Origin: Burkholderiales bacterium
GTDB taxonomy: Bacteria; Pseudomonadota; Gammaproteobacteria; Burkholderiales; Ga0077523
Reading direction: 5' to 3'
DNA length: 64,000 bases
Assembly: GCA_965279325.1 (NCBI GenBank)
Contig: OZ257154.1
Coordinates: 3,521,340 to 3,585,339, forward strand
Made by a program: the position numbers and the translations under genes. Shown piece after piece: positions 1 through 28,782 of this stretch. Numbering within the stretch: position 1 is the stretch's first letter; the number at the start of each line of letters is the position of its first letter. Below the pieces are notes generated by a model that was not told the DNA's origin, ran no database searches, and saw nothing but the letters and a program-made list of their open reading frames with translations.

Positions 1-597
1 CGCTATTCGGTGCGCTGGGCGGGAGAGCGCACGGATCTCTCCGGCTTTCTTTCCGCCTTCCATAACATTCCCGGTGGCAACGACGGTGACCAGGCGACCT
101 TCGATCGATCGCGACCTGGTGCGAGTGCAACTTATACGCTGTATCGCTATGGCGCTTCCGTAACCCAGACCCTCCCGGCCGATATCCAGATACGGCTCTC
201 GGCCAATGCCCAATACACGAGCGAACCTCTGGTTTCGGGCGAACAGTACGGTATCGGCGGCATGGATTCGGTGCGCGGCTTCATCGAGCGCGAGATCGTC
301 AACGACCGCGGCAGCCGCGTCTCGCTCGAGCTCTTCAGCCCCGACTTCGGCAGCCGTCTCTTTGCCGGAGCCAATGCGCGCATGGTGGCCTTCGGCGACG
401 CAGCCCAGGTGTCGCGTGTGCGCCCGCTTCCCGGCGAGGTGGTGAACGAATCGATCAGCGGTGCCGGTGTCGGCTTGCGGGCGAACTACAAGGCGATGTT
501 CTCGCTGCGGCTGGACTATGGCGTCGTGATCCAGCCGGGTGGGCTCCAGAGTCGCGGTGACCAGCGCCTGCAGGGCGTTGCCGCGGTGTACTTCTGA
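1..597 (+). CDS. TpsB-type outer-membrane transporter (ShlB/FhaC/HecB family), C-terminal fragment; 5' end outside window
   Basis: Frame open from base 1. Contains GIGGMDSVRGF motif and a beta-barrel-like C-terminus ending in F (GVAAVYF*). Lies 10 nt upstream of a TPS-domain exoprotein gene. Confidence 0.85.
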   Translation, partial: RYSVRWAGERTDLSGFLSAFHNIPGGNDGDQATFDRSRPGASATYTLYRYGASVTQTLPADIQIRLSANAQYTSEPLVSGEQYGIGGMDSVRGFIEREIVNDRGSRVSLELFSPDFGSRLFAGANARMVAFGDAAQVSRVRPLPGEVVNESISGAGVGLRANYKAMFSLRLDYGVVIQPGGLQSRGDQRLQGVAAVYF

Positions 598-607
598 GGC
601 GATACGG

Positions 608-9600: not shown

Positions 9601-12600
9601 GCTCGAACTGGCCGGCGGTACCCAGACGCTCACCAGCGCTTCGAACCTCTCGGGCAGTGGAACGCTACGCACCAGCGGCGGCAGTCTGGTCGTGAACACC
9701 ACCACACCGAACTTCAGCTTCAACGGCACGGTGCAGACCAGCAGCGGCAGTGCGAGCTTTGCACCGTCGATGACCCTGTCGCAGCTCACGTTGAGCGGTG
9801 GTACGACGACCTTCAATGCTGCGGTGAGCACGCCACGGCTGACCCAGAGCGGCGGTACGCTCGCCGGCGCAAGTACGCTCACGCTGAGCGGTCCCGGCTC
9901 CACCTGGAGCGGTGGCACGTGGAGCGGTGGTGGCCGCGTGGTGCTGAACACCGGGACCGATCTCGTGGCCAGCGGCAACTCTGCTACTACGCAGCTTGCG
10001 GGTCGCACGCTGGAGATCCAGAGCGGCGCGAGCGCGACCTTCAACGGCGAGATCGAATCCGAGCCCGGGACGAGCGTGATCGCCAACGCCGGCACGCTGA
10101 CCCTGGCGGGAACGCGGCTGAGCCACATCTACAACGCCAGCGGCACGATCACGGTGAACAACACCGGCACGATCAACAAGACCGGCACGGGCACCTACAG
10201 CCTTGGCGCCAATCTGAACAACGACGCGGTGTTGAATGTCCTCGCCGGCAATCTCACGAACGACGGCAATGGGACCAGCACGGGCGATCTCGATATCGCC
10301 GCCTCGGCGACCTATCAGCACGCCGGCGGAACGCAGACGTTGACCAACGCATCCGGCGTGACCGGCGTCGGCGAGTTGCTGGTGTCCGGCGGTACCTTGG
10401 CGGTGAACACGCCGACTGCCGGATTCGCGCATACGGGCGTCATCCGGAACACCGGCGGACTGGCGAGTTTCGCCGCGAATCTCACGCCGTCGCACGTGGC
10501 TCTCTCCGGCGGTACGACGACCTTCAACGGCAGCGTCATCACGCCGTTGCTCAGTCAGAGCGGCGGCACGCTTGCAGGCGGGAGTCTGGTGACGCTGACC
10601 GGCGCCGGATCGACCTGGACCGGTGGAACGTGGACCAGCAACGGCACCGTGCGCCTGAACCCGGGTGCATCGTTGACCGCCAATGGCAGCTCCGCCACCA
10701 CGCAGCTTGCGGGTCGCACGCTGGAGATCCAGAGCGGTGCGAGCGCGACCTTCAACGGCGAGATCGAATCCGAGCCCGGTACGAGCGTGATCGCGAATGC
10801 CGGCACGCTGACCCTGGCGGGCACGCGGCTGAGCCACATCTACAACGCCAGCGGCACGATCACGGTGAACAACACCGGCACGATCAACAAGACCGGCGCC
10901 GGCGTTTACGATCTGGGCACCGACTTCAACAACGACGGTACCGTGAACATCCAGGGCGGGACACTGCGCCTGGCCGGCTCCGGCGCCAGCAACGGTACCT
11001 TCGCGATCGGCGGCAGCGTCCTCGAGCAAGCCTTCGGGACGCAGACCTTCACCAGCGCCTCGAGCCTCTCGGGCAGCGGGACGCTGCGCACCAGCGGCGG
11101 CAGTCTCGTGGTCAACACCACCACAGCGAACTTCGGCTTCTCCGGTACGGTACAGACCAGCAACGGCAGTGCGAGCTTCGCCCCGTCGATGACCCTGTCG
11201 CAGCTCACGTTGAGCGGTGGTACGACGACCTTCAATGGCGCGGTGAGCACGCCGCAGTTGACGCAGAGCGCGGGCGTGCTCGCGGGCGCGAGCGTAGTGA
11301 CGCTCACTGGTCCCGGCTCCACCTGGAGCGGCGGTACGTGGACGGGCAACGGCACCGTTCGTCTCGCCTCCGGCGCCGTACTGACGGCGAGCGGCAGCAC
11401 CGCCAGCACGCAGTTGGCCGGTCGCACGCTGGAGATACAGAACGGTGCGAGCGCGATCTTCAACGGCGAGATCGAATCCGAACCCGGCACGAGTGTGATC
11501 AACAACGCCGGGACGCTGACGCTGGCCGGCACGCGGCTGAGCCACGTCTACAACGCCAGCGGCACGATCACGGTGAACAACACCGGGACCATCGAGAAGA
11601 CCGGTACGGGCGCCTACATCCTTGGCGCCAACCTCAACAACAACCAGACCGGTGATATCAACGCGTCCGGGACCCTCGTGCTCGCCGGTGGCACGCTCAC
11701 CAATGCCGGCACCCTGCGCCCGGCGGGTGCCGGCACCATCGGCACGCTCAATCTCGGCGGAAACTTCGTGCAAACCGGCACGGGCGTGATCGAGATCGAG
11801 ACGATCGGTACCGCGCCGGGCGATTCGGACGTGCTCGCCGTGTCGGGCAACGCGGCATTGGGTGGATTGCTGGAACTGGTCGCCATCAACGGCTACACGC
11901 CATCCGGCGCGAGTGCGTACGCCGACGTTCTCACCTACGCATCCCGTACCGGAGCCTTCGAAGCCGTCGGTGGCGCGGCATTCCCGGCGCTTACCCCGAC
12001 CTACGGAGCCAACGGCCTCACGATCGCGATCACCACCGGTGGCTCCATCGTGTGTCCCACCGGCTTCAGCGTGTGCTGGATCGGCACTTCGGATGGCAGC
12101 TGGAACGATACCGCGCAATGGAACACCGGCGCAGTGCCAACGGCAACGGACGATGTGTACGTGGCGGCGCCCGGCAGCATCACCATTACTGCGGCGAACG
12201 GCGGCGCCGTGAATCGACTCGTGAGCGAAGAGAGCTTCCTCCTGGCCGGTGGGACGTTCTTGCTCAACGGCGCATCGTCCGTCGGTCAGACACTGGCGAT
12301 CACGGGCGGTATCTTGCAGGCTAACGCAAACCTGGCGGCTGGATCGATCACCCTCAATGGTGGCGCGCTCAACGTCGGGGCTGGCGCGACGGTGTCCATC
12401 GCGAACCAGTTCGCATGGTCGGGGGGGGGCATCAATGGTGCGGGCACCAGCTCGGTGCTGCAGATCGCCGCGCCCGCCACCGTGAATGTGAGTGGCGCAA
12501 CGAAGGCGTTGGTCAACGTCGCCGTTGTCAACGCCGGCCAGATGAATCTGGGCCTCAGCACGAACAGCATGCTGCAGTTGAACGACGGTGCGTCAATTTC

Positions 12601-15600
12601 GAACAGCGGGACGCTCACGTTCACCGAGACCAACGCGATCGGTAGCGTGTCGGGCTCGGGCAGCCTCACCAATACCGGCACCATCGCTGCCGCCGCGAGC
12701 CGCACGGGCACCGTCCAGTCGACCACGTTCGCCAACAACGGCGGAACGCTGCAGGCGAGCGCGGTGGGCTCTTCGCTGCAGATGCGTTCCGCGTCGAGCA
12801 GCTACAGTGGTACGACGACCGTCGCTGGTACCGGTGTCCGGTTCGATGGCGGGGCACACACGTTCAGCGACGGCGCGACGGTCACGGGCCAGGTGAACCA
12901 GTCCAGCGCCATCACGTTCAATTCGACGGCCATCAACGGAACGTGGAACCAGTCTGGAGGTTCCACCAGCATCGCGGCGGGTGATACGTTGACGTTGAAC
13001 GGCACGGCGAACTGGTCCGGCGGCGGTATCTTCGGTGCGGGGCCAGGCGCAGCGCTCGCGCTTACCACGGGCGACGTGCTGAACGTGAGCGGCGCGACGC
13101 GCGGCTTGACCAATGTCGCCCTGACCAATGCCGGCCAGGTGAACGTCGGGCTCGACACCAACGGCATGCTGCAGCTGAACGACGGTGCCTCGATCGCGAA
13201 CAGCGGCGCACTCACTTTCGCGGAGACCAACGCCATCGGTACCGTTTCCGGGTCGGGCAGCTTTGCCAATGCCGGGACGATCGCCGTGGCCGCCGGCCGG
13301 ACCGGCACGGTCGAATCCACGAGCTTCAGCAATGGTGGCGGAGCCCTGCAGACGGGCTCCGGGTCGGTCCTGCGGATGCGCTCCGGGAACAGCAGCTACT
13401 CCGGCGCAACGACGATCACCGGTACCGGAGTGCAATTCGACGCGGGGACGCACACGTTTGCCGATGGCGCCAGTGTCGTCGGCCAGTTCAATCAGGCAAC
13501 GAACATCGTCTACGGCGACACGGTGCTGGCCGGTGTCTGGAACCTGAGCGCCGGCACGGCCTTGCTGGGTGCCGGCAAGACAATCACGTTGAACGGTACG
13601 GCCAATTGGTCAGGTGGCGGTATCGTCGGCTCGGGACCCACCTCGGCTCTCGCACTGTCCTCGGGCGACACGCTCAACATCACAGGTAGCACCAAGGCGC
13701 TGACCAACGCTCGTGTCGATGCGGGTCCCGGCTCCGCCGTGAACGTGGGCCTGAACACCAATGGAATGCTGCAGTTGAACGACGGTGCGTCGATCACGAA
13801 CAGTGGGACGCTCACGTTCACCGAGACCAACGCGATCGGTAGCGTGTCGGGCTCGGGCAGCCTCACCAATACCGGCACCATCGCTGCCGCCGCGAGCCGC
13901 ACGGGCACCGTCCAGCCGACCACCTTTGCCAACAACGGTGGAACGCTGCAGGCAAACGCGGCTGGCTCCTCGCTCCAGCTGCACTCGGGTTCGAGCAGCT
14001 ACAGTGGCACCACCACGCTCAACGGTACCGGCGTGCAGTTCAGCAGCGGCACCCACAGCTTCGCCGACGGTGCGAGCGTGAACGGCGTGCTGAACCAGTC
14101 TGCCAATCTCGTCTTCGGTACCGTTGCGCTCAACGGCACGTGGAACCAGTCGGGTGGCAACGCCCTGATCGACGCCAACGACACGCTCAGCGTCAACGGC
14201 ATCGTCAACTGGTCCGGCGGCGGCATCGTGGGCAGCGGTGGCTCCTTGCTGCAGGTCGCAGCGCCGGCGCGGTTCAACATGAGCGGGGCGACACGCGCAC
14301 TCACCAATGTGGCACTGGTGAATGCCGGAGTGATGAACCTCGGCCTGAACACCAACGCCGTGCTGCAGTTGAACGATGGGGCGTCAATCGCCAATGCGAG
14401 TACGTTCACTTTCGTCGAAACCAACGCTATCGGCACCGGCTCCGGATCGGGCAGCTTCGTCAACAATGGAACGTTGACGACGGTTGCCGGCGTGGCCGGA
14501 ACCGTGGGCAGCACGTCGTTCACCAACGCAGGTCTGGTGCGGGCCGCCGCCAACGCGAGCGTGGCGCTGCAGGCGGGCGGAACGCACACCGGTGCGTTCG
14601 AAGCGGACACCGGCGGCACCGTGGCATTCAGCGGCGGAACCCACAACCTGGGCGACGGCAGCCGCCTCACCAACGGACTGGTTCAAGTGAACGGGGGCAG
14701 CTTGAATCTCGTCGGGACCGGCGCCGGAACGCTGATACCGGTGGGTGCCGTCGTGTCATTGAGCGGTCAGACACTCGGCGGTTCAGGACTCCTGGACAAC
14801 CGGGGTACCCTCAATCTCGGCAACAGCACCGTCGCGGGCAGCGTGACCAATACCGGGACGTTGAACGTGACCGGCTCCAGCGCCGTCAACGGCGCGCGCT
14901 TCGACCAGAACAACGGAATCCTGTTGCTCAACGCGGGCTCGACGCTGACCAAGAACAGCGGCGTCTTCGCGTGGAACGGCGGTACGCTCGGCGGTCCCGG
15001 CACGCTGACCATGGCGAATGGAGCGTTGTTCGACATCGCAGGAACCGGCGCCCGCGTGCTCGACGGTCCGACGCTCAACATCGGCGGTCTCGGTCTGCAG
15101 GCCGGCTCGCTCGAAGTGCGCTCGGGGAGCCTCACCACCGCCGGCATCTCCACCATCGTGTCCGGCGCGACGCTCGTCCTCAATGGTGGCACCTTCAACA
15201 ACACCGCGCCCATGACTGTCGCGGGCACACTCGATCTGCGGACCGGCAGCCTTGCGCTCAACGGCGACGCGAGCCATACCGGCAGCTTCCTGCTCGGATC
15301 CGGGACGACGCTCGCTTTTGCATCCGGAATCCAGACGCTCACCGGACCGCTGTCGGGCAACGGCACGGTGGTGGTGTCCGGTGCGACGGTGACGTCGACT
15401 GGGTCCTATTCCGCGGCCACCACCAACGTCTCCGGCGGGACGCTCGCACTGAACGGCGCCGCGCAATCCCAGATCGTCAACGTGGGCCAGGGCGGAACGT
15501 TGGCGACAGGCGGAACCGTCACGTTCACGTCGCTCAACGTCAGCGGCGGGACTGTCGATGCGCAAGGCACCCTGAACGCCACCAATCTGTCGGTGGGGTC

Positions 15601-16513
15601 GGGTGCGGTGAACGGCGCTGGAACGGTGAACGTCGCGAACTTCACGCAATCCGGTGGCAGCGTGGACGGCACCGGCACTTTCAACGTGACCAACCGCTAC
15701 AACGCGACCGGCGGTTCGCTCGGCACCCGCTGGCGTGTGATGGCCATCACGCACACGCAGGGTGACCTCGTGTTGAATCGGGTGCACGCGGCGGGTACGA
15801 CGTCGGTCAGCGTGAGCAACGGCGCCCTGCGGGTCGTGGCGCTCGGCAGTCGCGCCGGTATCAGCGGCAGTACCGGCGTGACGGTGAACGCGTCGGGCGA
15901 CCTGGTATTGCAGGGCGGTTCCGGCGAGGGGGCGAGCGCCTTCGTGCAGTCCGGTGGCGGACCCTGCACGATCAACGTCGGCGGTACCACGCGACTGATC
16001 GGCGGGACCGGACCAAGCTCCAATGCCTTCATCAACGGCACTCCCGATGTCGGCAGCTTCGCGCAGCCGATCCGGCTCGCGGGACCGATCGAATTCATCG
16101 ACGGCTCGGGCGGTACGGCGCAGGTGCAGTCTTTCTCGCCGAGCAGCGTGTACGTGAACTTCCCGACCTTGAGTTCGGGCGGCTACACCGTCAACGGCGT
16201 CGAGGTGACATCTGCTGGATCGTCGGGATTCTTCGCGGGCGGCGCGCCTGCAGTGTTGAACAGCAATCTGTTCATCACGTACGGAGCGCTAGTGGTGCCG
16301 CCACCGCCACCACCACCACTCGGAGGTGGCACGTTGCAGCTTCCACTACTGACCGGAGCGCTCGAAGGCGGACCGTTAGCCACCAACGTGGTGGTTACCG
16401 CATCGGAACGTGGTCTGCTGTTCAACTTCCCAGAACCGCCGAAACCCGCTCTCGGCCCGGGTAGCCAAGGCGTGGTCGGAACCGAACGCCGGAGCATTCC
16501 ACAATGTCGATAG
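608..16513 (+). CDS. Giant two-partner-secretion exoprotein (TpsA / filamentous-haemagglutinin-like), 5,301 aa
   Basis: ATG at 608 verified in sequence (ORF track opens at 539). Signal peptide MSRRREFRPTTLAVALAACFPIASIG. TPS domain with QVLNRVIGGDPSQILG...QVFLINPNGIVFG, then GGFIETSG...WLIDPNNITIV. Remainder is Gly/Thr/Asn/Ser-rich beta-helix-like repeats. Confidence 0.92.
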   Translation: MSRRREFRPTTLAVALAACFPIASIGNPLDPAVVVGGATFQTQGNTLTVTNAPGTVINWQSFSIGQDEVTRFIQQSAASQVLNRVIGGDPSQILGTLQSNGQVFLINPNGIVFGVGAQVDVAGLVVSSLGITNADFLSGRLSFASGATAGSIRNDGTLRAVDGGSIYLIAPSIENHGIVAAPDGSVVLAAGKTATLMDSNRPFVQVEITAGGEAINVGQLVASNVGIYAGAVRVSGTVEATHAVMDESGRIRFAATGDTTITADGVVKADGASGGEVRIESGGTTLVDGKITANGSSGTGGTIVLLGAQVGLREESFVDASGLRGGGSVFVGGGVRGMDPTLPKASRTYVAPGAIVRADAQERGDGGRIVVWGDQFAGVHGALSARGGAVGGNGGFIETSGGSLVVSSTPDVTAPAGVGGTWLIDPNNITIVAGTGFTGINNVNPFASTVDGAQLGVTLIRNALTGGANVTITTGAGGSQAGDIVWSTGAALDYNGSGTNSLTLSAHNSITLSSNISDSNATTTDRLNLTLTPNSDGVGGGGVTVMASTVLDLKGGLLQVNGGGGITFANGSTLSNATLQAGAVTLNSGSIYFNGIALATDLTVPSGTTLRVDSGDLTLSGANRTLTLAGDMYLYQQTGTQTLGGAGRIVFASSGATIYSPYGGSTQVIGSGITLTGTTNGQFQSWGNFRNEGIIRSEVAGTTITVTKQNTAGTRAVNVGLIEATAGSVTLGGGPWENEDGPTNGTIRANGGTLNLNGAFSTATLGNLQSPSGVMQIGSGGVLTNTGQTLALGSGLTTASLRLANGAITGGTITTANGATFTQLGSGTSYLNGVTLGTDFVVPSGAVLRVDSGDLNLSGTNRVLTLQGDIYLYQQTGTQTLGGTGRIVFANNGAQIYAPYGGSTQVIGPGITLTGTTNGQFQSWGNIRNEGTIRSEVAGTTITVTKQNTGGTKAVNVGTIEATAGVVTLAGGSWENEDGALNGTIRSAGGTMNLTGGFSTATLGNLQSPSGVMQIGTSGVLTNTGETLALGSGLTTASLRLAGGAINGGTITTANGATFTQLGSGTSYLNGVTLGTDFVVPSGAVLRVDSGDLNLSGTNRVLTLQGDIYLYQQTGTQTLGGTGRIVFANNGAQIYAPYGGSTQVIGPGITLTGTTNGQFQSWGNIRNEGTIRSEVAGTTITVTKQNTGGTKTVNVGLIEAVAGSVTLSGGPWENEDGALNGTIRAGAAGTVNLNGAFNTATLGNLQTTGAGVMQLTASGSIANTGQTLTLGGTGTSASLRIAGGAINGGTITTANGASLTQLASGYSYLNDVTLDTDFTVPAGGILRVDSGGLTLAGTNRTLTLVGDMYLYQQTGTQTLGGTGRIVFANAGAQIYSNYAGNTVVVGPNVTVSGTTNGGLQLYSNFRNEGTIRSEVAGTTITVTKQNTGGTKAVNVGLIEAVAGSVTLSGGPWENEDGALNGTIRANGGTLNLNGAFSTATLGNLQSPGGVLQISSSGSLDNTGQTLALGSGLTTASLRLAGGAINGGTVTAANGATFTQLASGYSYLNDVTLDTDFTVPAGGILRVDSGGLTLAGANRTLTLAGDMYLYQQTGTQTLGGTGRIVFANANAQIYSNYTNNTVVVGPNVTVSGTTNGSFQLYSSFRNEGTIRSEVAGTTITVTKQNTGGTKAVNVGLIEAVAGSVTLSGGPWENEDGALNGTIRAGAAGTVNLNGAFNTVTLGNLQATGAGVMQLSSGGSIANTGQTLTLGGAGTSASLRLAGGAITGGTVATVNGASLTLAAGTSRMNAVTLATDLTVPVGSVLQVDSGDVTLSGSNRVLTLQGDMYLYQQTGTQTLGGTGRIVFANAGAQIYANYTNNTVVVGPNVTVNATTNGAFSLYSNFRNEGAIRSDVAGTTITVNKYGTGTSENVGSIVADGSSAVVLNGTTATLDNTGGTIRASNGGRIDINTTIATSDLGTLDATGGTVRLMSSGVLDNTGDTFQPGVDMAGSLTVAGGTIRGGIVQDDPANPAALILVNGTSPRFDNVTVDYDLALAANQLLYVDNGNLTLANGRTLTIGSAAGAAYLYFTQNAAQELRTTAGGSAQVLFANASGTSYVYSNSSTLSHQLTIRPGITIGGTGDGLVYAPTLVNEGTIRAGATGQSINVQAYSFDNLSGGLVEAASGGSILFQNYATSASEFTNAGTIRAAPGGTVELDYGTFSGTFLSSLTSTGGTVAVGSVVDNTNQTLTLDPATIGNLNLFSGGTIRGGTVTSVGGATLTIPNAGSITLDGVTLDTDLVAAGNSTISVPGTLTIVGGHRLSLGSAGTSATLVFNGAAANSLLRGGTGTAEVAFASGTGSNLYHNSGTLDIGSGVLIHSTGGSGTINNNGRVFTNSGEIDADVSGQTINLVATGMTNSGLVGASNGGVLALSGTFNPASLGVFDANGGTVRIGSSAIFDLQGGVFAMTAATGGVELSAGTIRNGTLRDAGAAMTVGPSSGTLDGVTLDQNLTLASRNLNVPNGLAIQGGRTVNLEGGGVLTLTGTGVARAITRGGSGTAEIVLGNGAISANNTGTLTLGQGLLVRSGANGNGSIGSGNTTALINQGTIAVDQSGRSISLFANATGSIDNQGLIRVVQGASLSTTGHALVNNNTAVGGGLQIGGTITLGTGITLTNNGRFGPGNSPGLATISGNLVLGTNSVLDIEVEGLARGTQYDAIDVTGTATLGGAVNVIRFGAYTETAGDILRVVTAQALSGNFRSVTGTATWTVQTDVRNAFLQAISSDPILLWTLNGSGAWTTAANWNLNRVPTATDIVLIDQPGTINVALSSGALAARRLFAFDGVTINGATLTLAGSSFVGAGSSFALSSGGLGGAGDLTLTGASTWSGGVLSGGSALRLASGAVLTASGNSATTQLAGRTLEIQSGASATFNGEIESEPGTSVINNAGTLTLAGTRLSHIYNASGTITVNNTGTVNKTGAGVYDLGTDFNNDGTVNIQGGTLRLAGSGTSNGVVAIGGNVLELAGGTQTLTSASNLSGSGTLRTSGGSLVVNTTTPNFSFNGTVQTSSGSASFAPSMTLSQLTLSGGTTTFNAAVSTPRLTQSGGTLAGASTLTLSGPGSTWSGGTWSGGGRVVLNTGTDLVASGNSATTQLAGRTLEIQSGASATFNGEIESEPGTSVIANAGTLTLAGTRLSHIYNASGTITVNNTGTINKTGTGTYSLGANLNNDAVLNVLAGNLTNDGNGTSTGDLDIAASATYQHAGGTQTLTNASGVTGVGELLVSGGTLAVNTPTAGFAHTGVIRNTGGLASFAANLTPSHVALSGGTTTFNGSVITPLLSQSGGTLAGGSLVTLTGAGSTWTGGTWTSNGTVRLNPGASLTANGSSATTQLAGRTLEIQSGASATFNGEIESEPGTSVIANAGTLTLAGTRLSHIYNASGTITVNNTGTINKTGAGVYDLGTDFNNDGTVNIQGGTLRLAGSGASNGTFAIGGSVLEQAFGTQTFTSASSLSGSGTLRTSGGSLVVNTTTANFGFSGTVQTSNGSASFAPSMTLSQLTLSGGTTTFNGAVSTPQLTQSAGVLAGASVVTLTGPGSTWSGGTWTGNGTVRLASGAVLTASGSTASTQLAGRTLEIQNGASAIFNGEIESEPGTSVINNAGTLTLAGTRLSHVYNASGTITVNNTGTIEKTGTGAYILGANLNNNQTGDINASGTLVLAGGTLTNAGTLRPAGAGTIGTLNLGGNFVQTGTGVIEIETIGTAPGDSDVLAVSGNAALGGLLELVAINGYTPSGASAYADVLTYASRTGAFEAVGGAAFPALTPTYGANGLTIAITTGGSIVCPTGFSVCWIGTSDGSWNDTAQWNTGAVPTATDDVYVAAPGSITITAANGGAVNRLVSEESFLLAGGTFLLNGASSVGQTLAITGGILQANANLAAGSITLNGGALNVGAGATVSIANQFAWSGGGINGAGTSSVLQIAAPATVNVSGATKALVNVAVVNAGQMNLGLSTNSMLQLNDGASISNSGTLTFTETNAIGSVSGSGSLTNTGTIAAAASRTGTVQSTTFANNGGTLQASAVGSSLQMRSASSSYSGTTTVAGTGVRFDGGAHTFSDGATVTGQVNQSSAITFNSTAINGTWNQSGGSTSIAAGDTLTLNGTANWSGGGIFGAGPGAALALTTGDVLNVSGATRGLTNVALTNAGQVNVGLDTNGMLQLNDGASIANSGALTFAETNAIGTVSGSGSFANAGTIAVAAGRTGTVESTSFSNGGGALQTGSGSVLRMRSGNSSYSGATTITGTGVQFDAGTHTFADGASVVGQFNQATNIVYGDTVLAGVWNLSAGTALLGAGKTITLNGTANWSGGGIVGSGPTSALALSSGDTLNITGSTKALTNARVDAGPGSAVNVGLNTNGMLQLNDGASITNSGTLTFTETNAIGSVSGSGSLTNTGTIAAAASRTGTVQPTTFANNGGTLQANAAGSSLQLHSGSSSYSGTTTLNGTGVQFSSGTHSFADGASVNGVLNQSANLVFGTVALNGTWNQSGGNALIDANDTLSVNGIVNWSGGGIVGSGGSLLQVAAPARFNMSGATRALTNVALVNAGVMNLGLNTNAVLQLNDGASIANASTFTFVETNAIGTGSGSGSFVNNGTLTTVAGVAGTVGSTSFTNAGLVRAAANASVALQAGGTHTGAFEADTGGTVAFSGGTHNLGDGSRLTNGLVQVNGGSLNLVGTGAGTLIPVGAVVSLSGQTLGGSGLLDNRGTLNLGNSTVAGSVTNTGTLNVTGSSAVNGARFDQNNGILLLNAGSTLTKNSGVFAWNGGTLGGPGTLTMANGALFDIAGTGARVLDGPTLNIGGLGLQAGSLEVRSGSLTTAGISTIVSGATLVLNGGTFNNTAPMTVAGTLDLRTGSLALNGDASHTGSFLLGSGTTLAFASGIQTLTGPLSGNGTVVVSGATVTSTGSYSAATTNVSGGTLALNGAAQSQIVNVGQGGTLATGGTVTFTSLNVSGGTVDAQGTLNATNLSVGSGAVNGAGTVNVANFTQSGGSVDGTGTFNVTNRYNATGGSLGTRWRVMAITHTQGDLVLNRVHAAGTTSVSVSNGALRVVALGSRAGISGSTGVTVNASGDLVLQGGSGEGASAFVQSGGGPCTINVGGTTRLIGGTGPSSNAFINGTPDVGSFAQPIRLAGPIEFIDGSGGTAQVQSFSPSSVYVNFPTLSSGGYTVNGVEVTSAGSSGFFAGGAPAVLNSNLFITYGALVVPPPPPPPLGGGTLQLPLLTGALEGGPLATNVVVTASERGLLFNFPEPPKPALGPGSQGVVGTERRSIPQCR
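2288..6590 (+). repeat. Coding tandem repeat family A: six copies, period 714-720 bp (238-240 aa), inside tpsA
   Basis: YLYQQTGTQTLGG landmark (TAC codon) at 2504, 3218, 3932, 4652, 5366, 6083. Copies 2 and 3 are almost base-identical over more than 400 bp (about 3070-3480 vs 3785-4195). Three degenerate units follow to about 8400. Confidence 0.9.
9190..11660 (+). repeat. Coding tandem repeat family B: four copies, period 708-711 bp (236-237 aa), inside tpsA
   Basis: GGGTCGCACGCTGGAGATCCAGAGCGG landmark at 9292, 10000, 10711, about 11419. Peptide TQLAGRTLEIQSGASATFNGEIESEPGTSVI.NAGTLTLAGTRLSHIYNASGTITVNNTGT recurs four times. Confidence 0.9.
12330..14680 (+). repeat. Coding tandem repeat family C: four copies, period 594-600 bp (~199 aa), inside tpsA
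   Basis: ATGCTGCAG(T/C)TGAACGA landmark at 12569, 13166, 13766, 14360. Peptide NWSGGGI...MLQLNDGASI.NSG.LTF.ETNAIG.VSGSGS recurs. Copies 1 and 3 share a near-identical stretch of about 150 bp. Confidence 0.9.
12421..12429 (+). repeat. G9 homopolymer inside the tpsA reading frame
   Basis: Read directly: ...gcatggtc ggggggggg catc..., encoding W-S-G-G-G-I. The same motif in the other three family-C units is encoded TGGTC(C/A)GG(C/T)GGCGG(T/C), without a run. Confidence 0.95.
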
Positions 16514-17859
16514 TGTCCAGGACGCGGATCGTCGCGGTGGCAGTACTGTGCCTGTGGACGGTGGCCGGCCATGCCGCCGAACCCGCCGCGCGTGCATCAG
16601 GCGTGAGCGGTGTGGTCATCATCGAACGGGCGGCGGGCGGCGTGAAGTTCGCCGCAGATGGCACTGCACTCGAGACGGGCGACACGCTGCGCACGGAAGC
16701 GGCCAGCCAGACTCGGCTCGATTTCGCCGACGGCACCCAGGTGTTGTTGCGCCCGCAGTCCGTGTTCAAGGTCGAGAAGTACCGCTACAACGAGGCGAAG
16801 CCGCAGGAGGACGGGGCGCTGCTGCGCCTGCTCAAAGGCGGCCTGCGAACCGTCACGGGCCTGATGGGCAAGCGACGACCGGATGCATTCCAGCTCGGCG
16901 CCGGCACCGCGACGATCGGTATCCGCGGCACCGATTTCGTCGTCCGCATGTGCACCGACGATTGCGTCGCCGAGACGAAGGTGGCGGCCAAGACGGATCT
17001 GCCCCCGTTGCCAAGCTTCGCGGGACGGGTGATGAGTGTGCAGGGCCGGCTCCAGGTGGATCGAGGGGCCGGACCGCGGCCGCTGGCGGCAGGCGAGACT
17101 TTCTACGGCGGCGACACTCTGATCACGGCACCGTCCGCGCTGGCAGTCATCCTGTTTCGCGACGGCATGCGCGTCGTGCTCAAGGCCGACACGAAATTCC
17201 TCGTGGACACATTCCGCTACGAAGCCGCGAATCCGGAGCGCGGCAACGCGATCCTGCGCCTGCTCAAGGGCAGCCTGCGCGCGGTGACCGGTCTCGTCGC
17301 CCAGCGCAACCCGTCGCAGGTGCAGTTCGGTACTTCGGTAGCGACCATCGGCATCCGCGGTACGGGATTCGATCTGCGCTGTACCGGACCGTGCGCGAGC
17401 GAGGCGCCGGTCGCCTCGGACGAACTCGACGGACTGGCGGCTTACACCTGGAAGGGCTGCACGACGATGCTGACCGAGCAGGGCAACCTCGATCTGTGCG
17501 AGGGGCAGGCCGGTCAGGTTTCCGGCCCGGGCAAGGCACCGCGCAAGTTCGATGCGGTGCCGCGCTACTTCCTCGACGACAAGTCACCCCGGCCGGACGC
17601 GATCGATGGCGATCCGGATACGGTGTTCGGTCCGCAGAAGCAGGACTTCTCTTCCGCGGGCACTTACGTCTACGTCCGGGATGGCGCCGTCGTGCTGCGG
17701 GGTGGCGGTACGGAACAGGGCCTCGCGCGTGGCGAGGTCGGGTATCTCGATCAGAACGGGCGGTTTTCGCGCCTGCCCACGCCCCCGCTATTTATCGATC
17801 GCGATCCGGTGCTGCGTCACATGGATACCGACGCGAGCATGAGTTGCAGCGTGCCGTGA
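16504..17859 (+). CDS. Periplasmic protein with two tandem FecR-like domains, 451 aa
   Basis: Signal peptide MSIVSRTRIVAVAVLCLWTVAGHAAEP. Internal duplication: GDTLRT..RLDFADGTQVLL..LLRLLKGGLRTVTGL..ATIGIRGTDF and GDTLIT..VILFRDGMRVVL..ILRLLKGSLRAVTGL..ATIGIRGTGF. Start overlaps the tpsA stop by 10 nt. Confidence 0.8.
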   Translation: MSIVSRTRIVAVAVLCLWTVAGHAAEPAARASGVSGVVIIERAAGGVKFAADGTALETGDTLRTEAASQTRLDFADGTQVLLRPQSVFKVEKYRYNEAKPQEDGALLRLLKGGLRTVTGLMGKRRPDAFQLGAGTATIGIRGTDFVVRMCTDDCVAETKVAAKTDLPPLPSFAGRVMSVQGRLQVDRGAGPRPLAAGETFYGGDTLITAPSALAVILFRDGMRVVLKADTKFLVDTFRYEAANPERGNAILRLLKGSLRAVTGLVAQRNPSQVQFGTSVATIGIRGTGFDLRCTGPCASEAPVASDELDGLAAYTWKGCTTMLTEQGNLDLCEGQAGQVSGPGKAPRKFDAVPRYFLDDKSPRPDAIDGDPDTVFGPQKQDFSSAGTYVYVRDGAVVLRGGGTEQGLARGEVGYLDQNGRFSRLPTPPLFIDRDPVLRHMDTDASMSCSVP

Positions 17860-17872
17860 ACGACCGTCGGTA

Positions 17873-18529
17873 CTAGCGGGTCGGGGTCACGGCGTCGCGG
17901 ATTCGCAGAGCGGCCTGCAACATCGATTCGCCCGTGCGGCGTTCGATGTGTTCCACGCGCAGGAAGCGCGCGCTGTTGTGATCGGGATCGATGTCGGACG
18001 CCAGCGCCCTGCGGCTCAGGTGGAAGCGCATGAGTCGGTCGGCGCGATCGGCGTGACGATCGGTGAGATAGAGCCCCATGTAGATGTCGGCCAGGAGTTC
18101 GGCGCGCTGCACCTGGGCCGATGCTTCGCCGGCGCGCGCGGAATCGCTCGCCACGGCCTGGGCCTTGATGAACCCGGGGGACGCATTCGCGTGCTGTTCG
18201 GCGCAGTGTCCCATTTCATGGGCCAGCAGGCCCTCGAGATACGGCGCGCGATCCGACGGGTCCAGCTGCGCGAGCGTGGTGTCCAGGAACGAGGAGTTCC
18301 TGAGGGCGGCTACTTCGCAATCGGCCGGCCTGGCGAACGCAGCCAGGGCCGTGGTGATGGACGGGTCCGTGACGTGCCGCAGTCGGGGTTGCCACGCAGG
18401 GTCCGCGGCGGTACGGACCGCGGCCGCGAAGGCCTGATCGATGTCGGTCGCCGATTCCGCGGGTGCCGGCAGGAACGTCGCCAGGACTGCCGCCATGACG
18501 GGGATTGCCGGGGTTTGCCAGTGCCACAT
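17873..18529 (-). CDS. Hypothetical exported protein with HEXXH zinc-metallopeptidase motif (LLAHEMGHCAEQH), 218 aa
   Basis: ATG with GGAG 8-11 nt upstream. Hydrophobic N-terminus (AIPVMAAVLATFLPAPAESA). Single HEMGH motif; family not recognised. Stop lies 14 nt from the stop of the convergent FecR gene. Confidence 0.6.
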   Translation of the reverse strand: MWHWQTPAIPVMAAVLATFLPAPAESATDIDQAFAAAVRTAADPAWQPRLRHVTDPSITTALAAFARPADCEVAALRNSSFLDTTLAQLDPSDRAPYLEGLLAHEMGHCAEQHANASPGFIKAQAVASDSARAGEASAQVQRAELLADIYMGLYLTDRHADRADRLMRFHLSRRALASDIDPDHNSARFLRVEHIERRTGESMLQAALRIRDAVTPTR

Positions 18530-18604
18530 GTTTGCGTCGCTCCGTAGGTTCAGTGTTCGAACCGACGACTACCGGGCGACGACACGCGCTGGCGGGGAAA
18601 CGTC

Positions 18605-18712
18605 ACGGTCCCTCGAACCGGCAGCCCCGCTGGCATTCGGGAGAGATGCTCTCCCGGGTAGCCCGGTGGCTTTGCGTCCCCGTCTTTCGACGGGTTTGCC
18701 CTTGTAGCTCGT
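18605..18712 (-). promoter_or_regulatory. c-di-GMP class I (GEMM-I) riboswitch aptamer in the 5' leader of the HEXXH gene
   Basis: Minus-strand read: AAGGGCAAACCCGUCGAAAGACGGGGACGCAAAGCCACCGGGCUACCCGGGAGAGCAUCUCUCCCGAAUGCCAGCGGGGCUGCCGG. It has the hallmark GGCAAACC-[GAAA-capped helix]-GGGACGCAAAGCC...CCGG...AGCGGGGYURCCGG. Confidence 0.8.
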
Positions 18713-18861
18713 CCATTGCCGGGAGGAATGAAACCCGATCCCGGCGACGCACCTATTTCGGCGGTCCGGACACTTTCTTGAGGTGATTTTTCGGGTGGCC
18801 GTCTGGCGCGCTAGATGCTTCGGTCATGACCCCCGCCACTGCCCGCCCAATCGGAGGCTCC

Positions 18862-19176
18862 ATGCTCGTCACCAATCTCGAAATCATCCCCGGCAAACGC
18901 GTCGGCAAGCACCTCGGCCTCGTACAGGGCAGCACCGTGCGATCCAAGCATGTCGGCAAGGACATCCTGGCCGGCCTCAAGAACATCGTCGGCGGCGAGC
19001 TGAAGGGCTATACCGAACTGCTCAAGGAAGCCCGCGAGGAGGCCACCGAGCGCATGGTCCAGCAGGCCCAGTCGGTCGGCGCCAATGCGGTCCTCAACGT
19101 GCGCTTCAGCACCTCGTCGATTACCCAGGGCGCGGCGGAGATGCTCGCCTACGGCACCGCCGTGTTCCTCGAGTAA
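18862..19176 (+). CDS. YbjQ/UPF0145 family (heavy-metal-binding-domain) protein
   Basis: MLVTNLEIIPGKRV...GGELKGYTELL...ANAVLNVRF...AEMLAYGTAV is typical YbjQ. Internal ATG at 18862 chosen over ORF start 18826 to match family N-termini. Confidence 0.75.
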   Translation: MLVTNLEIIPGKRVGKHLGLVQGSTVRSKHVGKDILAGLKNIVGGELKGYTELLKEAREEATERMVQQAQSVGANAVLNVRFSTSSITQGAAEMLAYGTAVFLE

Positions 19177-19182
19177 GCCGCC

Positions 19183-19623
19183 ATGTGGGATCTCGTCATA
19201 TTCGTCACCCTCGTGGTGATCGGCTACGTCGTCGGGCGCATCCTGGAGGCGAGGCACTACCGTTCGATCCGGGCGCGCGAACAGGAACTGCGCGACATCA
19301 TGCTGTTCGCCAGCCGTTTCCCGCCGACGCTCGAGCCGTTGCAGCAGGATCTGGTGGCCGGCAGCGTCGTGGTCTCGGCCGACTATTTCAAGGTCGTGGT
19401 CGCGGGCTTGCAGAGCATCGTCGGCGGTCGCATGAAGACCTACGAGACACTGCTGGATCGCGCTCGCCGCGAGGCCATCCTGCGCATGAAGGAGGAAGCG
19501 CGCGGGCGCGGCTCGAAGATGATCGTGAACGTGAAGTTCCAGACCTTTTCCATTCCGGGCCGCAAGGCCGGCAGCCTCAAGGGCGTGGAAATGCTGGCGT
19601 ACGGGACGGCCTTGCTTGCCTGA
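19183..19623 (+). CDS. Membrane-anchored YbjQ-like domain protein
   Basis: N-terminal TM helix (WDLVIFVTLVVIGYVVG) followed by a YbjQ-like core (IVGGRMKTYETLL...MIVNVKF...VEMLAYGTAL). Starts 6 nt after the upstream YbjQ gene. Confidence 0.65.
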   Translation: MWDLVIFVTLVVIGYVVGRILEARHYRSIRAREQELRDIMLFASRFPPTLEPLQQDLVAGSVVVSADYFKVVVAGLQSIVGGRMKTYETLLDRARREAILRMKEEARGRGSKMIVNVKFQTFSIPGRKAGSLKGVEMLAYGTALLA

Positions 19624-20485
19624 CTATTCGAACCCGCAGATTCCGGACGGGATCAACGTCAGCCACACGCATCCGCTGGCGGATTTCGCTCGCCTTCTGG
19701 GGGGCATCCTGGTCGTGCTGGTCGTCGTCGTCGCAATCCTCGCGCTCGTGGCGGGACACGTGGCGAAATACATCCCCTTCGAGACCGAGCTCGCCATCGC
19801 CAACCGCTTCGCCGGCCAGCTCGATCAGCCCGGATCGAAGCCCGTCGTCGACTATCTGGATGGGGTCACCCGCAAGATCGTCGCGGCGCACGACCTGCCA
19901 CCGGGAATGACGATCACGGTGCATTACCTGCCGGACGACACGGTGAACGCCTTCGCCACCCTCGGCGGGCACGTCGCGGTCTATGGCGGGTTGATGCGGC
20001 GGATGCCCAACGAGAACGCGCTGGCGATGGTGATCTCGCACGAGATCGCGCACGTGAAGCTGCGGCATCCGATCTCCACGATGGGGCGTGGAATCGTGGT
20101 CGGCGTCGCCCTGACCGTGGTCTCGTCGGCAGCCGGCGGCGACCTGGTCGGCCGGGCACTCGGACCGGCCGGGTTGCTCACCATGATGAGCTTCTCGCGC
20201 GACCAGGAACGCGATGCCGATGCGGTGGGCCTTGAGGCCGTCGTGAAGGCGTATGGCCATGCGGGCGGTGCCGACGATACCTTCCGGAAGCTGAAGGAAT
20301 CCTTTGCCGGCAAGACCAGGCCCCCGGAGTTCTTCAGCACCCACCCGCTCGACGATGAGCGCATCGCGACCATCGCCGACACGGCCCGCGAACGCGGCTG
20401 GGCCGCGACCGGGAGCCTGACGCCCTACCCGCCGGAAGTCACCGCGGCGTTGGACGAGACCCGGACCGATACGCCGAAACCGTAG
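19616..20485 (+). CDS. M48-family zinc metallopeptidase, membrane-anchored
   Basis: HEIAHVKLRHP zinc motif and N-terminal TM segment (LLGGILVVLVVVVAILALVAG). TTG start overlaps the upstream gene by 8 nt; exact start uncertain. Confidence 0.75.
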   Translation: MPDYSNPQIPDGINVSHTHPLADFARLLGGILVVLVVVVAILALVAGHVAKYIPFETELAIANRFAGQLDQPGSKPVVDYLDGVTRKIVAAHDLPPGMTITVHYLPDDTVNAFATLGGHVAVYGGLMRRMPNENALAMVISHEIAHVKLRHPISTMGRGIVVGVALTVVSSAAGGDLVGRALGPAGLLTMMSFSRDQERDADAVGLEAVVKAYGHAGGADDTFRKLKESFAGKTRPPEFFSTHPLDDERIATIADTARERGWAATGSLTPYPPEVTAALDETRTDTPKP

Positions 20486-26461: not shown

Positions 26462-26650
26462 TTTCAGGTGCCCGCGCCGGGTTTCCCGGCAGGGTTAAAC
26501 GGGAAACAGGTGAGCGGTTCGCGCCGCGATGCCTGTGCTGCCCCCGCAACGGTCAGTGAGGATGAGTGCGTCACGATGCCACTGTCGGCACGTGTCGCCC
26601 CGGGCTTGAGCCCGGGCCGACACCCGATGGGAAGGCGGCGCCCTTGGTCT
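26462..26650 (+). promoter_or_regulatory. Cobalamin (B12) riboswitch
   Basis: GGUUAAACGGGAAACAGGUGAGC...CCUGUGCUGCCCCCGCAACGGUCAG...GCCACUG (26578-26584)...GGGAAGGCGG. Upstream of a BtuB-like receptor. Confidence 0.85.
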
Positions 26651-26814
26651 CGCGAGCCCGGATACCGGCCAGGAACCCGACCGGCACGATTCCGCGGGGG
26701 GCGGACACCGGCGACGGTCGGTTCCCGACGGTCGCTGCCCCGACCACCCATGGCGTCATGTCATTCCGATTCAAGGCGTGCGGAGGGCACGCCACCACCA
26801 GGGTGGGGGACATC

Positions 26815-28782
26815 ATGGGATTTCGATCCGGCACGGCGCTGACCGCGGCATTGTCCATCGTCCCACTGATCGGACTGGCGGAGAGCGATCTCGCTTCCCC
26901 CAAGGTCGTCGTCACCGCCAACCGTTTCGAACAGAGCCCGGAGCAGACTCCGATCGGCGTGACGGTCATCACCGCGGAGCAGATTCGCGACAGCGGTGCC
27001 CGGACCATGCCCGAAGTATTGGCCCGGGAGGTCGGGTTCACCGTCCGCGACAATTCCGGTAGTCCGAACCGGCAGATCGACCTGCGTGGTTTCGGCGTCA
27101 CCGGCGACCAGAACACGCTGATCCTGGTAAACGGCCAGCGCATCTCGGAGAACGAACTCACCCCGGCCGACCTCGCGTCGATATCGCTCGCCACGGTCGA
27201 GCGGGTCGAGGTGCTGCGCTCGAGCGGCGCCGTGCTGTATGGCGGCGGGGCCACCGGCGGCACGGTGAACATCATCACGCGTGGCCCGCGACCTCGTGAA
27301 AGGTCGGCACAGGTCGCGGCCACGGTGGGGTCTTATGACACTTATGGCGTTTCAGCGGGCGTCAACCTTGGCCTCGAGCGCTGGGGTGCGACGCTGAATG
27401 CCGCTCGCCTGTCGTCGGACAACTACCGCCGCAACAACGCGCTGCGGCAGGAGAACGTATCCGGTGACCTGACCTGGTTCGGTGACCGCGGTCCGGTGTC
27501 GTTCAAGTTCTCGGCTGGATCGCAGGAACTCGGGCTCCCCGGGGCTCGCACCGAAGCGCAGCTGGAAACCGACCGGCGCGGCGCGACCAATCCGAACGAC
27601 TCATCTTCGCTGGACGACACGCGGGTGACGCTCGGAACCACGCAGCGGTTCGATGCCATGGAACTGGCCGTGGACGTCACCCATCGCGAGCGCCGCTCGA
27701 ACACGTTCCAGTTCGGCGGTACCAACGACATCAACGGGCGCGTGACCGGCCTGTCGCCGCGCGTTCGCATTCCCTTCACGCTCGGGCCGGTCGTGAATAG
27801 CCTCGTGCTCGGCGGCGACTGGGAGCAGTGGAACTTCAACAACCAGATTTCCTCTTTCAACTACTTCGGTACCTCGAAGCAGGACAACAGTGCCCTGTAT
27901 TTCCAGGACACCATCGAATTCCCGACCCGGACGATCGTGAGCCTCGGGGCGCGCAAGCAGTGGGTCGATACGTCGCTGACCGAGACCCAGACGACGGAGC
28001 AGCGTCGCACCGTTCCCGCCACCGAACTCGCGCTGCGGCAGGCCATCGGCGAGGCCTGGTCCGTGTACGGCAAGTTCGGTCGCAGCTTCCGCCTGCCGGT
28101 CGTGGACGAGATCCGCAGCTTCGGTTTCGGATTGCCCAACCTGCTCGAACCGCAAACCTCGCGCGATCGCGAGGTCGGCGTTCAGTATGCGGAGGAAGGC
28201 CGGCGTGCTCGGTTGGCCGCCTTCCAGTCGCGGCTCGAGAACGAGATCATGTTCGTCCCGTTCGCGGTCAGCCCCTTCTCCGGGCAGAACGTGAATCTCC
28301 CACCCACCCGGCGCACGGGCATCGAGGTCGACGCCGCCGCGACGTTCTTCCAGCGCTGGGAGTTCGGCGTCCGATACGCGTACACGGAAGCGGAGTTCCG
28401 GTCCGGTACGTTCTCCGGCATCGACGTCACCGGCAACGAGATCCCGCTTGTGCCCCGGCACAAGGCCGGCTTCTCGCTCGCCTGGCGGCCCACCACGGCG
28501 TGGCGCCTCGGCGCGGATGTGAACTACATCGGCGAGCAGCGGTACGACGGCGACCAGGCCAACACCTTCGACCGCATGATGCCGAGCTACACCGTGCTCG
28601 ACCTCAACGCGGCCTGGACCCACGGGCCGTTGACCCTGCGGGCGGCGATCCTCAATGTCACCGGCGAGAAGTACTATTCCTACGCCATTCTCGACACGTT
28701 CACGCCGGGCAACGCGTTCAACGCCTACCCGGCTCCCGAACGGACCCTGCTGGTCACCGCGGAGCTGCGTTTCGGCCGCTGA
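26815..28782 (+). CDS. btuB: TonB-dependent receptor, BtuB-like (cobalamin/corrinoid uptake)
   Basis: ATG 26815 verified with GGGGGA upstream; signal peptide. TonB-box/plug VVVTANRFEQSPEQTP resembles E. coli BtuB. C-terminus ends ...AELRF-GR. Preceded by a B12 riboswitch. Confidence 0.8.
   Translation: MGFRSGTALTAALSIVPLIGLAESDLASPKVVVTANRFEQSPEQTPIGVTVITAEQIRDSGARTMPEVLAREVGFTVRDNSGSPNRQIDLRGFGVTGDQNTLILVNGQRISENELTPADLASISLATVERVEVLRSSGAVLYGGGATGGTVNIITRGPRPRERSAQVAATVGSYDTYGVSAGVNLGLERWGATLNAARLSSDNYRRNNALRQENVSGDLTWFGDRGPVSFKFSAGSQELGLPGARTEAQLETDRRGATNPNDSSSLDDTRVTLGTTQRFDAMELAVDVTHRERRSNTFQFGGTNDINGRVTGLSPRVRIPFTLGPVVNSLVLGGDWEQWNFNNQISSFNYFGTSKQDNSALYFQDTIEFPTRTIVSLGARKQWVDTSLTETQTTEQRRTVPATELALRQAIGEAWSVYGKFGRSFRLPVVDEIRSFGFGLPNLLEPQTSRDREVGVQYAEEGRRARLAAFQSRLENEIMFVPFAVSPFSGQNVNLPPTRRTGIEVDAAATFFQRWEFGVRYAYTEAEFRSGTFSGIDVTGNEIPLVPRHKAGFSLAWRPTTAWRLGADVNYIGEQRYDGDQANTFDRMMPSYTVLDLNAAWTHGPLTLRAAILNVTGEKYYSYAILDTFTPGNAFNAYPAPERTLLVTAELRFGR

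Follow-up and report, generated by a model that had tools for sequence, protein, structure and literature searches.

The minus strand at positions 18713–18518 of the window (the whole stretch of DNA analysed, 64,000 nucleotides) is best read as an mRNA leader that carries a canonical class I c-di-GMP riboswitch, which would act as a translational OFF switch upstream of a probable zincin-like metalloprotease gene. We give this reading, taken as a whole, a probability of roughly 60%. The elements on which it is built are the following:

18616–18709, minus strand: GEMM-I (c-di-GMP class I) aptamer, placed by the cmscan alignment, the sequence and helix pairing in eight orthologues
18698–18713, minus strand: 5′ switching strand GACGAGCUACAAGGGC, comprising the 5′ strand of P1, the junction with G20 and the GC of the first aptamer helix
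18569–18592, minus strand: 5′ strand of the predicted stem sequestering the Shine–Dalgarno (SD) sequence and AUG, CCAGCGCGUGUCGUCGCCCGGUAG, based on folding, orthologue pairing and duplex energy
18564–18577, minus strand: switching or anti-SD segment GCCCGGUAGUCGUC, which can pair with the aptamer 5′ strand or with the SD region
18547–18563, minus strand: apical hairpin GGUUCGAACACUGAACC, which caps the sequestering stem and recurs in the anti-aptamer fold
18518–18547, minus strand: 3′ strand of the sequestering stem, CUACGGAGCGACGCAAACAUGUGGCACUGG, which holds the GGAG and the start codon
17873–18529, minus strand: regulated gene for a 218-aa signal-peptide protein, defined by its ORF, motifs, homologue alignment and model

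In the mechanism that we propose, when c-di-GMP is low the first 16 nt of the element, GACGAGCUACAAGGGC, would pair with GCCCGGUAGUCGUC about 120 nt downstream. This anti-aptamer pairing would dismantle the binding pocket and hold the SD in no more than a weak local hairpin; the gene would then be translated. With c-di-GMP bound, the aptamer would keep its 5′ strand and set GCCCGGUAG free; GCCCGGUAG and the sequence upstream of it would then zip with CUACGGAGCGACGCAAACAUGUGGCACUGG into a long stem, capped by GGUUCGAACACUGAACC, that buries the SD and the AUG, and translation would fall. The product that is switched in this way would be a Sec-exported, zincin-like (HExxH...ExxAD) probable metalloprotease. 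We favour translational OFF control because of the costs of opening the ribosome site, the conservation of both folds, the lack of a terminator and the complementarity of the aptamer 5′ strand to the expression platform, each of which is taken up below.

The aptamer was located by an Rfam scan of the whole window, run at gathering thresholds, in which the best member of each clan by E-value supplies the label. Positions 18616–18709 of the minus strand gave a full-length match to clan CL00126 (GEMM-I), covering model positions 1–80 of 80. The best-ranked model was RF03167 (c-di-GMP-I-GGC) at 70.1 bits and an E-value of 1.5e-14 (gathering score 59), and a second, lower-ranked match from the same clan also exceeded the gathering score set for it. 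A match this far beyond chance shows that the aptamer is real.

Only two other RNAs were found in the 64 kb by the same scan. The first is a cobalamin riboswitch (RF00174; 26449–26687, plus strand; 79.6 bits, E 5.5e-18), lying directly upstream of the ORF of a TonB-dependent receptor (26566–28782; Plug and beta-barrel domains) and overlapping its listed start, which is a typical B12-uptake arrangement. The second is a 6S/SsrS RNA gene (RF00013; 25532–25712, minus strand; 50.7 bits against a gathering score of 46.4, E 3.5e-07).

To compare the aptamer with the Vibrio cholerae Vc2 structure, we took Vc2 numbering as model numbering plus 10, which places consensus A18 and G20 correctly and makes the junction position 47. 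In Vc2, c-di-GMP is contacted by G20, A47 and C92, and C44-G83 is the universal interhelical pair (PMC4744006). On the model alignment, the window has G20 at 18700, A47 at 18673 and C92 at 18621, and this triad is the same in all orthologues; C44 (18676) and G83 (18630) are also present and invariant, as is the GAAA tetraloop at 18688–18685. The receptor-like halves are CUAC (18661–18658) and AAUG (18637–18634), whereas the RF01051 consensus is CUAA/UAUG, and about half of the orthologues have CUAA.

The aptamer helices are 97–100% paired in eight orthologues, and compensatory changes are seen at two pairs of the distal P3 stem. The local P1 helix is weak and is broken in three orthologues. 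The element thus shares with the c-di-GMP-I family and Vc2 the two hairpins, the GAAA tetraloop with its receptor-like motif, the ligand contacts, the interhelical pair and a place in a sense-strand 5′ leader (PMC4744006). It differs in its host, an uncultured Burkholderiales lineage, in its very weak local P1, and in using the 5′ side of the aptamer as the switching strand, with a partner about 120 nt downstream.

The 3′ end of the aptamer lies 87 nt upstream of the ATG (18529–18527) on the same strand, and a GGAG Shine–Dalgarno sequence is found at 18543–18540. The first-pass annotation had proposed a class I c-di-GMP aptamer in the leader of a small HEXXH protein gene from the letters of 18540–18715, and it was right on each count: the minus-strand sequence is present exactly as it was transcribed, the GEMM-I match is full-length with its core blocks, GAAA-capped helix, ligand triad and C44-G83 pair, and the downstream ORF contains HEMGH. 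It had also described a hairpin, GGUUCGAACACUGAACC at 18547–18563, which does exist downstream of the aptamer, but at 52 nt from the aptamer 3′ end rather than about 40, and with 1 nt rather than 2 nt separating it from ACGGAG. Nor is this hairpin a stand-alone element, since it caps a longer stem, predicted to sequester the SD and AUG, that competes with an anti-aptamer helix.

The two competing folds were obtained as follows. When the aptamer is enforced, the leader forms a long irregular stem between 18592–18569 and 18547–18518, capped by GGUUCGAACACUGAACC, in which GGAG and AUG are buried. When it is left unconstrained, both RNAalifold on eight leaders and the single-sequence minimum free energy (MFE) prediction pair GACGAGCUAC-AA-GGGC (18713–18698) with GCCCGGUAGUCGUC (18577–18564), which ties up G20 along with the GC of the first aptamer helix. 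For window transcripts of at least 140 nt, ending at +16, this anti-aptamer fold is the MFE structure. The segment GCCCGGUAGUCGUC reaches the SD region through GCCCGGUAG, which pairs with CUACGGAGC; GCCCGGUAG is common to both folds, and the aptamer/SD-stem fold and the anti-aptamer fold are predicted to be mutually exclusive.

Our orthologue sets comprised 12 leaders for position 47, 10 for segment invariance and eight for folding and pairing. The switching strand GACGAGCUACAAGGGC is invariant in all orthologues, GCCCGGUAGUCGUC is nearly invariant in 10 leaders, and GCCCGGUAG is invariant in 10/10. Pairing is kept across orthologues in 91.7% of cells for the SD-stem fold and in 94.6% for the anti-aptamer fold. 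In the SD stem, the L006 group of orthologous loci has changes that wobble pairing tolerates (U-A to U-G and G-C to G-U), and there is one double change. The helix of the GGUUCGAACACUGAACC hairpin is 100% paired, with G-U replaced by G-C in two sequences and a 1-nt deletion in one orthologue (L012) absorbed by a register shift. Most key platform pairs never vary and the orthologues are close to one another, so covariation support outside the aptamer is thin.

The anti-aptamer helix has 13 bp and a duplex energy of −18.2 kcal/mol, and the sequestering duplex has one of −27.3 kcal/mol. In 2000 dinucleotide shuffles, complementarity of the 5′ strand to the platform was equalled only nine times and is rare, whereas that of the SD stem was equalled 129 times and is only mildly unusual for this G+C content. 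The aptamer-enforced fold lies above the MFE by 9 kcal/mol at transcript lengths of 150–185 nt and by 4 kcal/mol at 200 nt, a gap of 4–9 kcal/mol that tight ligand binding could plausibly pay for. At full length, the aptamer-enforced fold acquires the SD/AUG stem.

Opening the ribosome site costs more with the aptamer formed than with the anti-aptamer fold in 8/8 orthologues, with transcripts ending at +16 and at +40 nt; the values for the window are 12.9 versus 7.7 kcal/mol and 15.0 versus 8.4 kcal/mol. The SD nucleotides are largely paired in both states, and the difference is one of stem stability rather than exposure. With 33 nt of coding sequence included, the SD stem is part of the window MFE with or without the enforced aptamer. 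These calculations suggest that the ribosome site opens less readily once ligand is bound, and that the element is probably an OFF switch. The first-pass annotation held that polarity could not be read from the sequence; here we depart from it, and tentatively predict OFF with c-di-GMP from the opening costs in the eight orthologues.

There is one competing interpretation that keeps the aptamer and the ligand and reverses the polarity, such that c-di-GMP would turn translation on. In that arrangement, a 9-bp helix between GACGAGCUAC and GUAGUCGUC (on the 18572–18564 side) would serve as an extended P1 in the bound state and keep GUAG from CUAC, which would prevent the SD stem from closing; the stem would form when ligand is absent. 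It is kept alive because the 9-bp long-range helix and a folded aptamer can coexist in transcripts of intermediate length, where the best aptamer-enforced fold (150–185 nt) includes the helix; in addition, the local P1 is weak and poorly conserved, and ON-type class I switches do exist, as with Vc1 upstream of gbpA (PMC4744006). At full length, however, combining the aptamer with the long P1 costs 5.7 kcal/mol more than combining it with the SD stem in the window, and 4–14 kcal/mol more in the other orthologues. Moreover, the long-range helix does not separate the two states, because the ligand-free MFE already contains it, extended by GGGC/GCCC, and the opening costs point the opposite way in 8/8 orthologues. 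We therefore consider an ON switch unlikely and retain OFF polarity as the prediction.

Two further pairings with the 3′ half of the aptamer were considered and set aside as functional elements. An upstream CCGGCA is not conserved and is absent in L001, and the coding-region segment CCGGCAAUCCCCG is likewise not conserved and is absent in L004. The latter (18498–18510, minus strand; codons 7–11 of the regulated gene) is complementary to CGGGGCUGCCGG in the 3′ half of the aptamer and captures it in full-length MFE folds; given its absence in L004, the complementarity is probably fortuitous.

An intrinsic-terminator scan of the minus strand from 17700 to 19000 gave no terminator-like site, and there is no U run in the leader between the aptamer and the start codon. 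The earlier remark that no U-tract is seen is thus borne out, and its preference for translational over terminator control continues to be the best reading, given the lack of a terminator, the SD/AUG pairings and the opening costs. A different form of transcriptional control would be Rho-dependent termination in the leader or the early coding sequence, with the switch also tuning antisense read-through into the convergent genes for a FecR-domain protein and a TpsA-type exoprotein. Untranslated leaders are typical Rho substrates, and intrinsic terminators are lacking both in the leader and between the convergent stop codons, 13 nt apart. The conserved pairings nevertheless centre on the SD and AUG, as translational control predicts, and Rho would add to such control rather than replace it. 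As the main mode of regulation we find it distinctly improbable, and translational control by the SD/AUG stem stays the preferred reading.

Conservation begins sharply at GACGAGCUAC (18713). No sigma-70 promoter match was found by a scan of 17700–19000, and a sigma-54 pattern search allowing three mismatches returned fewer matches than chance and no such motif in the window. In two orthologous loci, a perfect sigma-54-type core, TGGCACagcgcTTGC (TGGCAC-N5-TTGC), is present (L001, 3932–3946; L002, 226–240), with the conserved GACGAGCUAC block following about 17 nt downstream. This placement suggests a transcript start near that block. Upstream of the element, the window and the other orthologues share a different conserved block, CTCAAGAAA...GCCGAAATAG, in which neither a sigma-70 nor a sigma-54 match can be recognised. 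It appears that the promoter was swapped between orthologues while the riboswitch was kept.

The label that Rfam assigns to the aptamer requires some care. The first-pass annotation had pointed to RF01051, and while orthologous leaders that carry this label match the model strongly (75.0–81.4 bits against a gathering score of 35), the top label of the window itself is RF03167. We infer the standing of the window against RF01051 from these near-identical leaders, which differ from it at 2–9 nt. Leaders that are labelled RF03167 score 68.3–71.4 bits on that model (gathering score 59), and this is the label for five orthologous leaders (L008, L009, L011, L012 and L017). The E-values are nearly tied across labels: L016 is called RF01051 at 81.4 bits with an E-value of 9.9e-15, and L017 is called RF03167 at 69.8 bits with an E-value of 9.7e-15.

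Taken at face value, the label would place the aptamer in the GGC variant, with a ligand other than c-di-GMP or an altered specificity. The overall sequence is indeed very similar, and RF03167 is the winning model above its gathering score in the window and in the five leaders just named. The variant was reportedly defined by Weinberg et al. in 2017 by a G instead of an A at position 47, and we took this definition from the RF03167 consensus. After the first hairpin, however, that consensus reads GACGC-G-AAgCc, whereas the window reads GACGC-A-AAGCC, as do 12/12 orthologous leaders, so that position 47 is A throughout. The defining G47 is lacking, and the ligand triad is for this reason the canonical G20/A47/C92. 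As near-identical leaders switch between RF01051 and RF03167 with tied E-values, we regard the GGC label as an artefact of clan competition. Covariance models of the GEMM-I clan are known to pick out the same sequences (PMC9943018). Membership of the GGC variant is thus very improbable, and on its sequence the window aptamer is a canonical member of the c-di-GMP-I family, which would be expected to bind c-di-GMP.

A second variant was also rejected. An A at position 20 is said to define the c-AMP-GMP (GEMM-Ib) riboswitch, as reportedly described by Kellenberger and by Nelson in 2015; the window has G there (18700), and so does every orthologue. This variant class is cited in PMC7266159.

When the orthologous loci were scanned, the aptamer was found upstream of every orthologue with enough 5′ DNA. 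Nucleotide identity between the window and the orthologues is 90–98% for the aptamer, 76–100% for the 88-nt platform, 70–91% for the coding sequence and 50–93% for the 100 nt upstream of the element, and the aptamer and platform are more strongly conserved than the coding sequence. That the aptamer is a decaying or non-functional relic without a regulatory role, which the weak local P1 might suggest, is hardly credible in view of its higher identity than that of the coding sequence, the compensatory changes in the distal P3 stem and the intact state of every ligand-contact and tertiary-contact nucleotide.

The regulated protein has an N-terminal hydrophobic, signal-like segment and the motifs HEMGHC (residues 104–109) and ELLAD (144–148). 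Nine homologous clusters of 61–90% identity, all metagenomic, were found among 5.8 billion proteins, and the wider family comprises 30 representative clusters among 1.84 billion. In 22 divergent members, C71, H104, E105, H108, C109, E144, A147 and R174 are invariant, and D148 and H184 are nearly so. On account of these residues, HExxHC...ExxAD can be read as the gluzincin arrangement, as in peptidase family M48. From its sequence, this appears to be a very small orphan family with a zincin-like predicted fold.

The likeness to M48 (HtpX/BepA-type gluzincins) consists of HExxH followed about 36 residues on, in a second helix, by E-x-x-A-D, a weak Pfam similarity around the active-site helix, and a predicted fold of a three-stranded sheet with two helices. 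The protein falls outside Pfam PF01435 (M48), with a sub-threshold score of 15.6 bits against a cut-off of 20.3 (E 0.015); Zn_peptidase is also sub-threshold, and the M48 profile matches 4/22 family members, with a best E-value of 0.005. With 218 aa, the protein is much smaller than M48 peptidases and has no membrane or TPR domains, and its invariant Cys pair (C71, C109) and DPxH motif are absent from M48.

PDB-wide sequence and profile searches returned no relative. A confident AF2 model built on a deeper alignment (pLDDT 88.1) has a three-stranded sheet (strands within 47–76), the HExxH helix at 91–115 and the Glu-bearing helix at 130–158. The top Foldseek matches to this model are zincins (MATCAP, M61 aminopeptidase, SPRTN and CapP), all with E-values of at least 0.13, which are not significant. 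The motifs and the model suggest that the product is a probable secreted zincin-like metalloprotease.

The gene stands tail-to-tail with two overlapping genes on the opposite strand:

16504–17859, plus strand: FecR-domain protein of 451 aa, the convergent neighbour, identified by Pfam and in orthologous contigs
539–16513, plus strand: TpsA-type exoprotein or adhesin of 5,324 aa, repetitive, with an N-terminal TPS secretion domain

The tail-to-tail arrangement with the FecR-domain gene is found in all orthologous contigs that are long enough, and in these a very large ORF runs at its 3′ end into the FecR-domain gene. The window copy of this ORF has long internal repeats of about 240 aa, and its 3′ end overlaps the start of the FecR-domain ORF by 10 nt; the N-terminal TPS secretion domain is the reason for naming it a TpsA-type exoprotein or adhesin. 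The regulated and FecR-domain genes have their convergent stop codons 13 nt apart (17860–17872), no terminator was detected in this interval, and read-through across them would be antisense to the opposite gene.

On the other side lies a divergent operon (18826–20485, plus strand) for two proteins of the YbjQ family and for an M48 peptidase of canonical type (289 aa, Pfam E 1.4e-25), and the riboswitch is thus flanked by two HExxH proteins. Synteny of this YbjQ-YbjQ-M48 operon with the riboswitch gene is kept in L006, L009, L012 and L014. Orthologous genes have products of 104 aa, so that translation of YbjQ probably begins at 18862, with the internal Met of MLVTNLE. Since PolA, UvrD, LeuRS and GatB are also encoded in the window, we take it to be chromosomal; two relatives from genome collections are metagenome-assembled genomes (MAGs) of Burkholderiales/Betaproteobacteria. 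Two distant family members (L018, 31% identity; L019, 22%) have no riboswitch and have different neighbours. The association of the riboswitch with TpsA is therefore specific to the close subfamily, the distant members being without both.

In Clostridioides difficile, a class I riboswitch is present in the mRNA of zmpI (PPEP-1), which c-di-GMP represses, and ZmpI is a small secreted HExxH zinc metalloprotease that removes adhesins from the cell surface (PMC6366702). The window resembles this system in having a class I riboswitch before a gene for a small secreted HExxH protein, in its predicted OFF polarity and in a link to an adhesin, which here consists of synteny alone, the protease-like gene adjoining that of a giant adhesin. 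It differs in that a PDB-wide profile search detected no sequence similarity to ZmpI, and in that the candidate substrate is a TpsA exoprotein, whereas those of C. difficile are sortase-anchored. Gram-positive c-di-GMP riboswitches typically act by transcription termination, as does Cdi-2-4 (PMC6366702); the zmpI host is Gram-positive, whereas the window comes from a Gram-negative for which translational control is predicted. Among known systems, zmpI is the nearest functional analogue, and the predicted OFF polarity would fit the same logic, in which the adhesin is retained on the surface at high c-di-GMP.

As the class is well known, one more copy of this riboswitch is routine. For those who annotate such elements, the case illustrates that the GGC-variant label of Rfam can land on canonical aptamers through clan competition, and the defining nucleotide should be checked before the label is recorded. 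The find would also give an entry point, by way of c-di-GMP regulation, to the exported HExxH proteins of this very small orphan family.

The gene keeps strictly to its place next to that of a giant two-partner-secretion adhesin, and this synteny suggests a testable circuit of protease and adhesin release, parallel to C. difficile ZmpI. It is possible, though doubtful, that the riboswitch is the c-di-GMP input of an adhesin-release module, in which the gluzincin would process or release the neighbouring 5,324-aa TpsA adhesin when c-di-GMP is low. The protease would be periplasmic or secreted and might act through the co-encoded FecR-domain protein; at high c-di-GMP, it would be switched off and the adhesin retained on the surface. 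If this is true, Gram-negative bacteria would have in this module an RNA-based equivalent of ZmpI/CD2831 from C. difficile and of the LapG/LapD-controlled adhesin release of Pseudomonas, and the module would employ a protease family without a characterised member. If confirmed, riboswitch-controlled adhesin shedding would extend to Gram-negative Betaproteobacteria.
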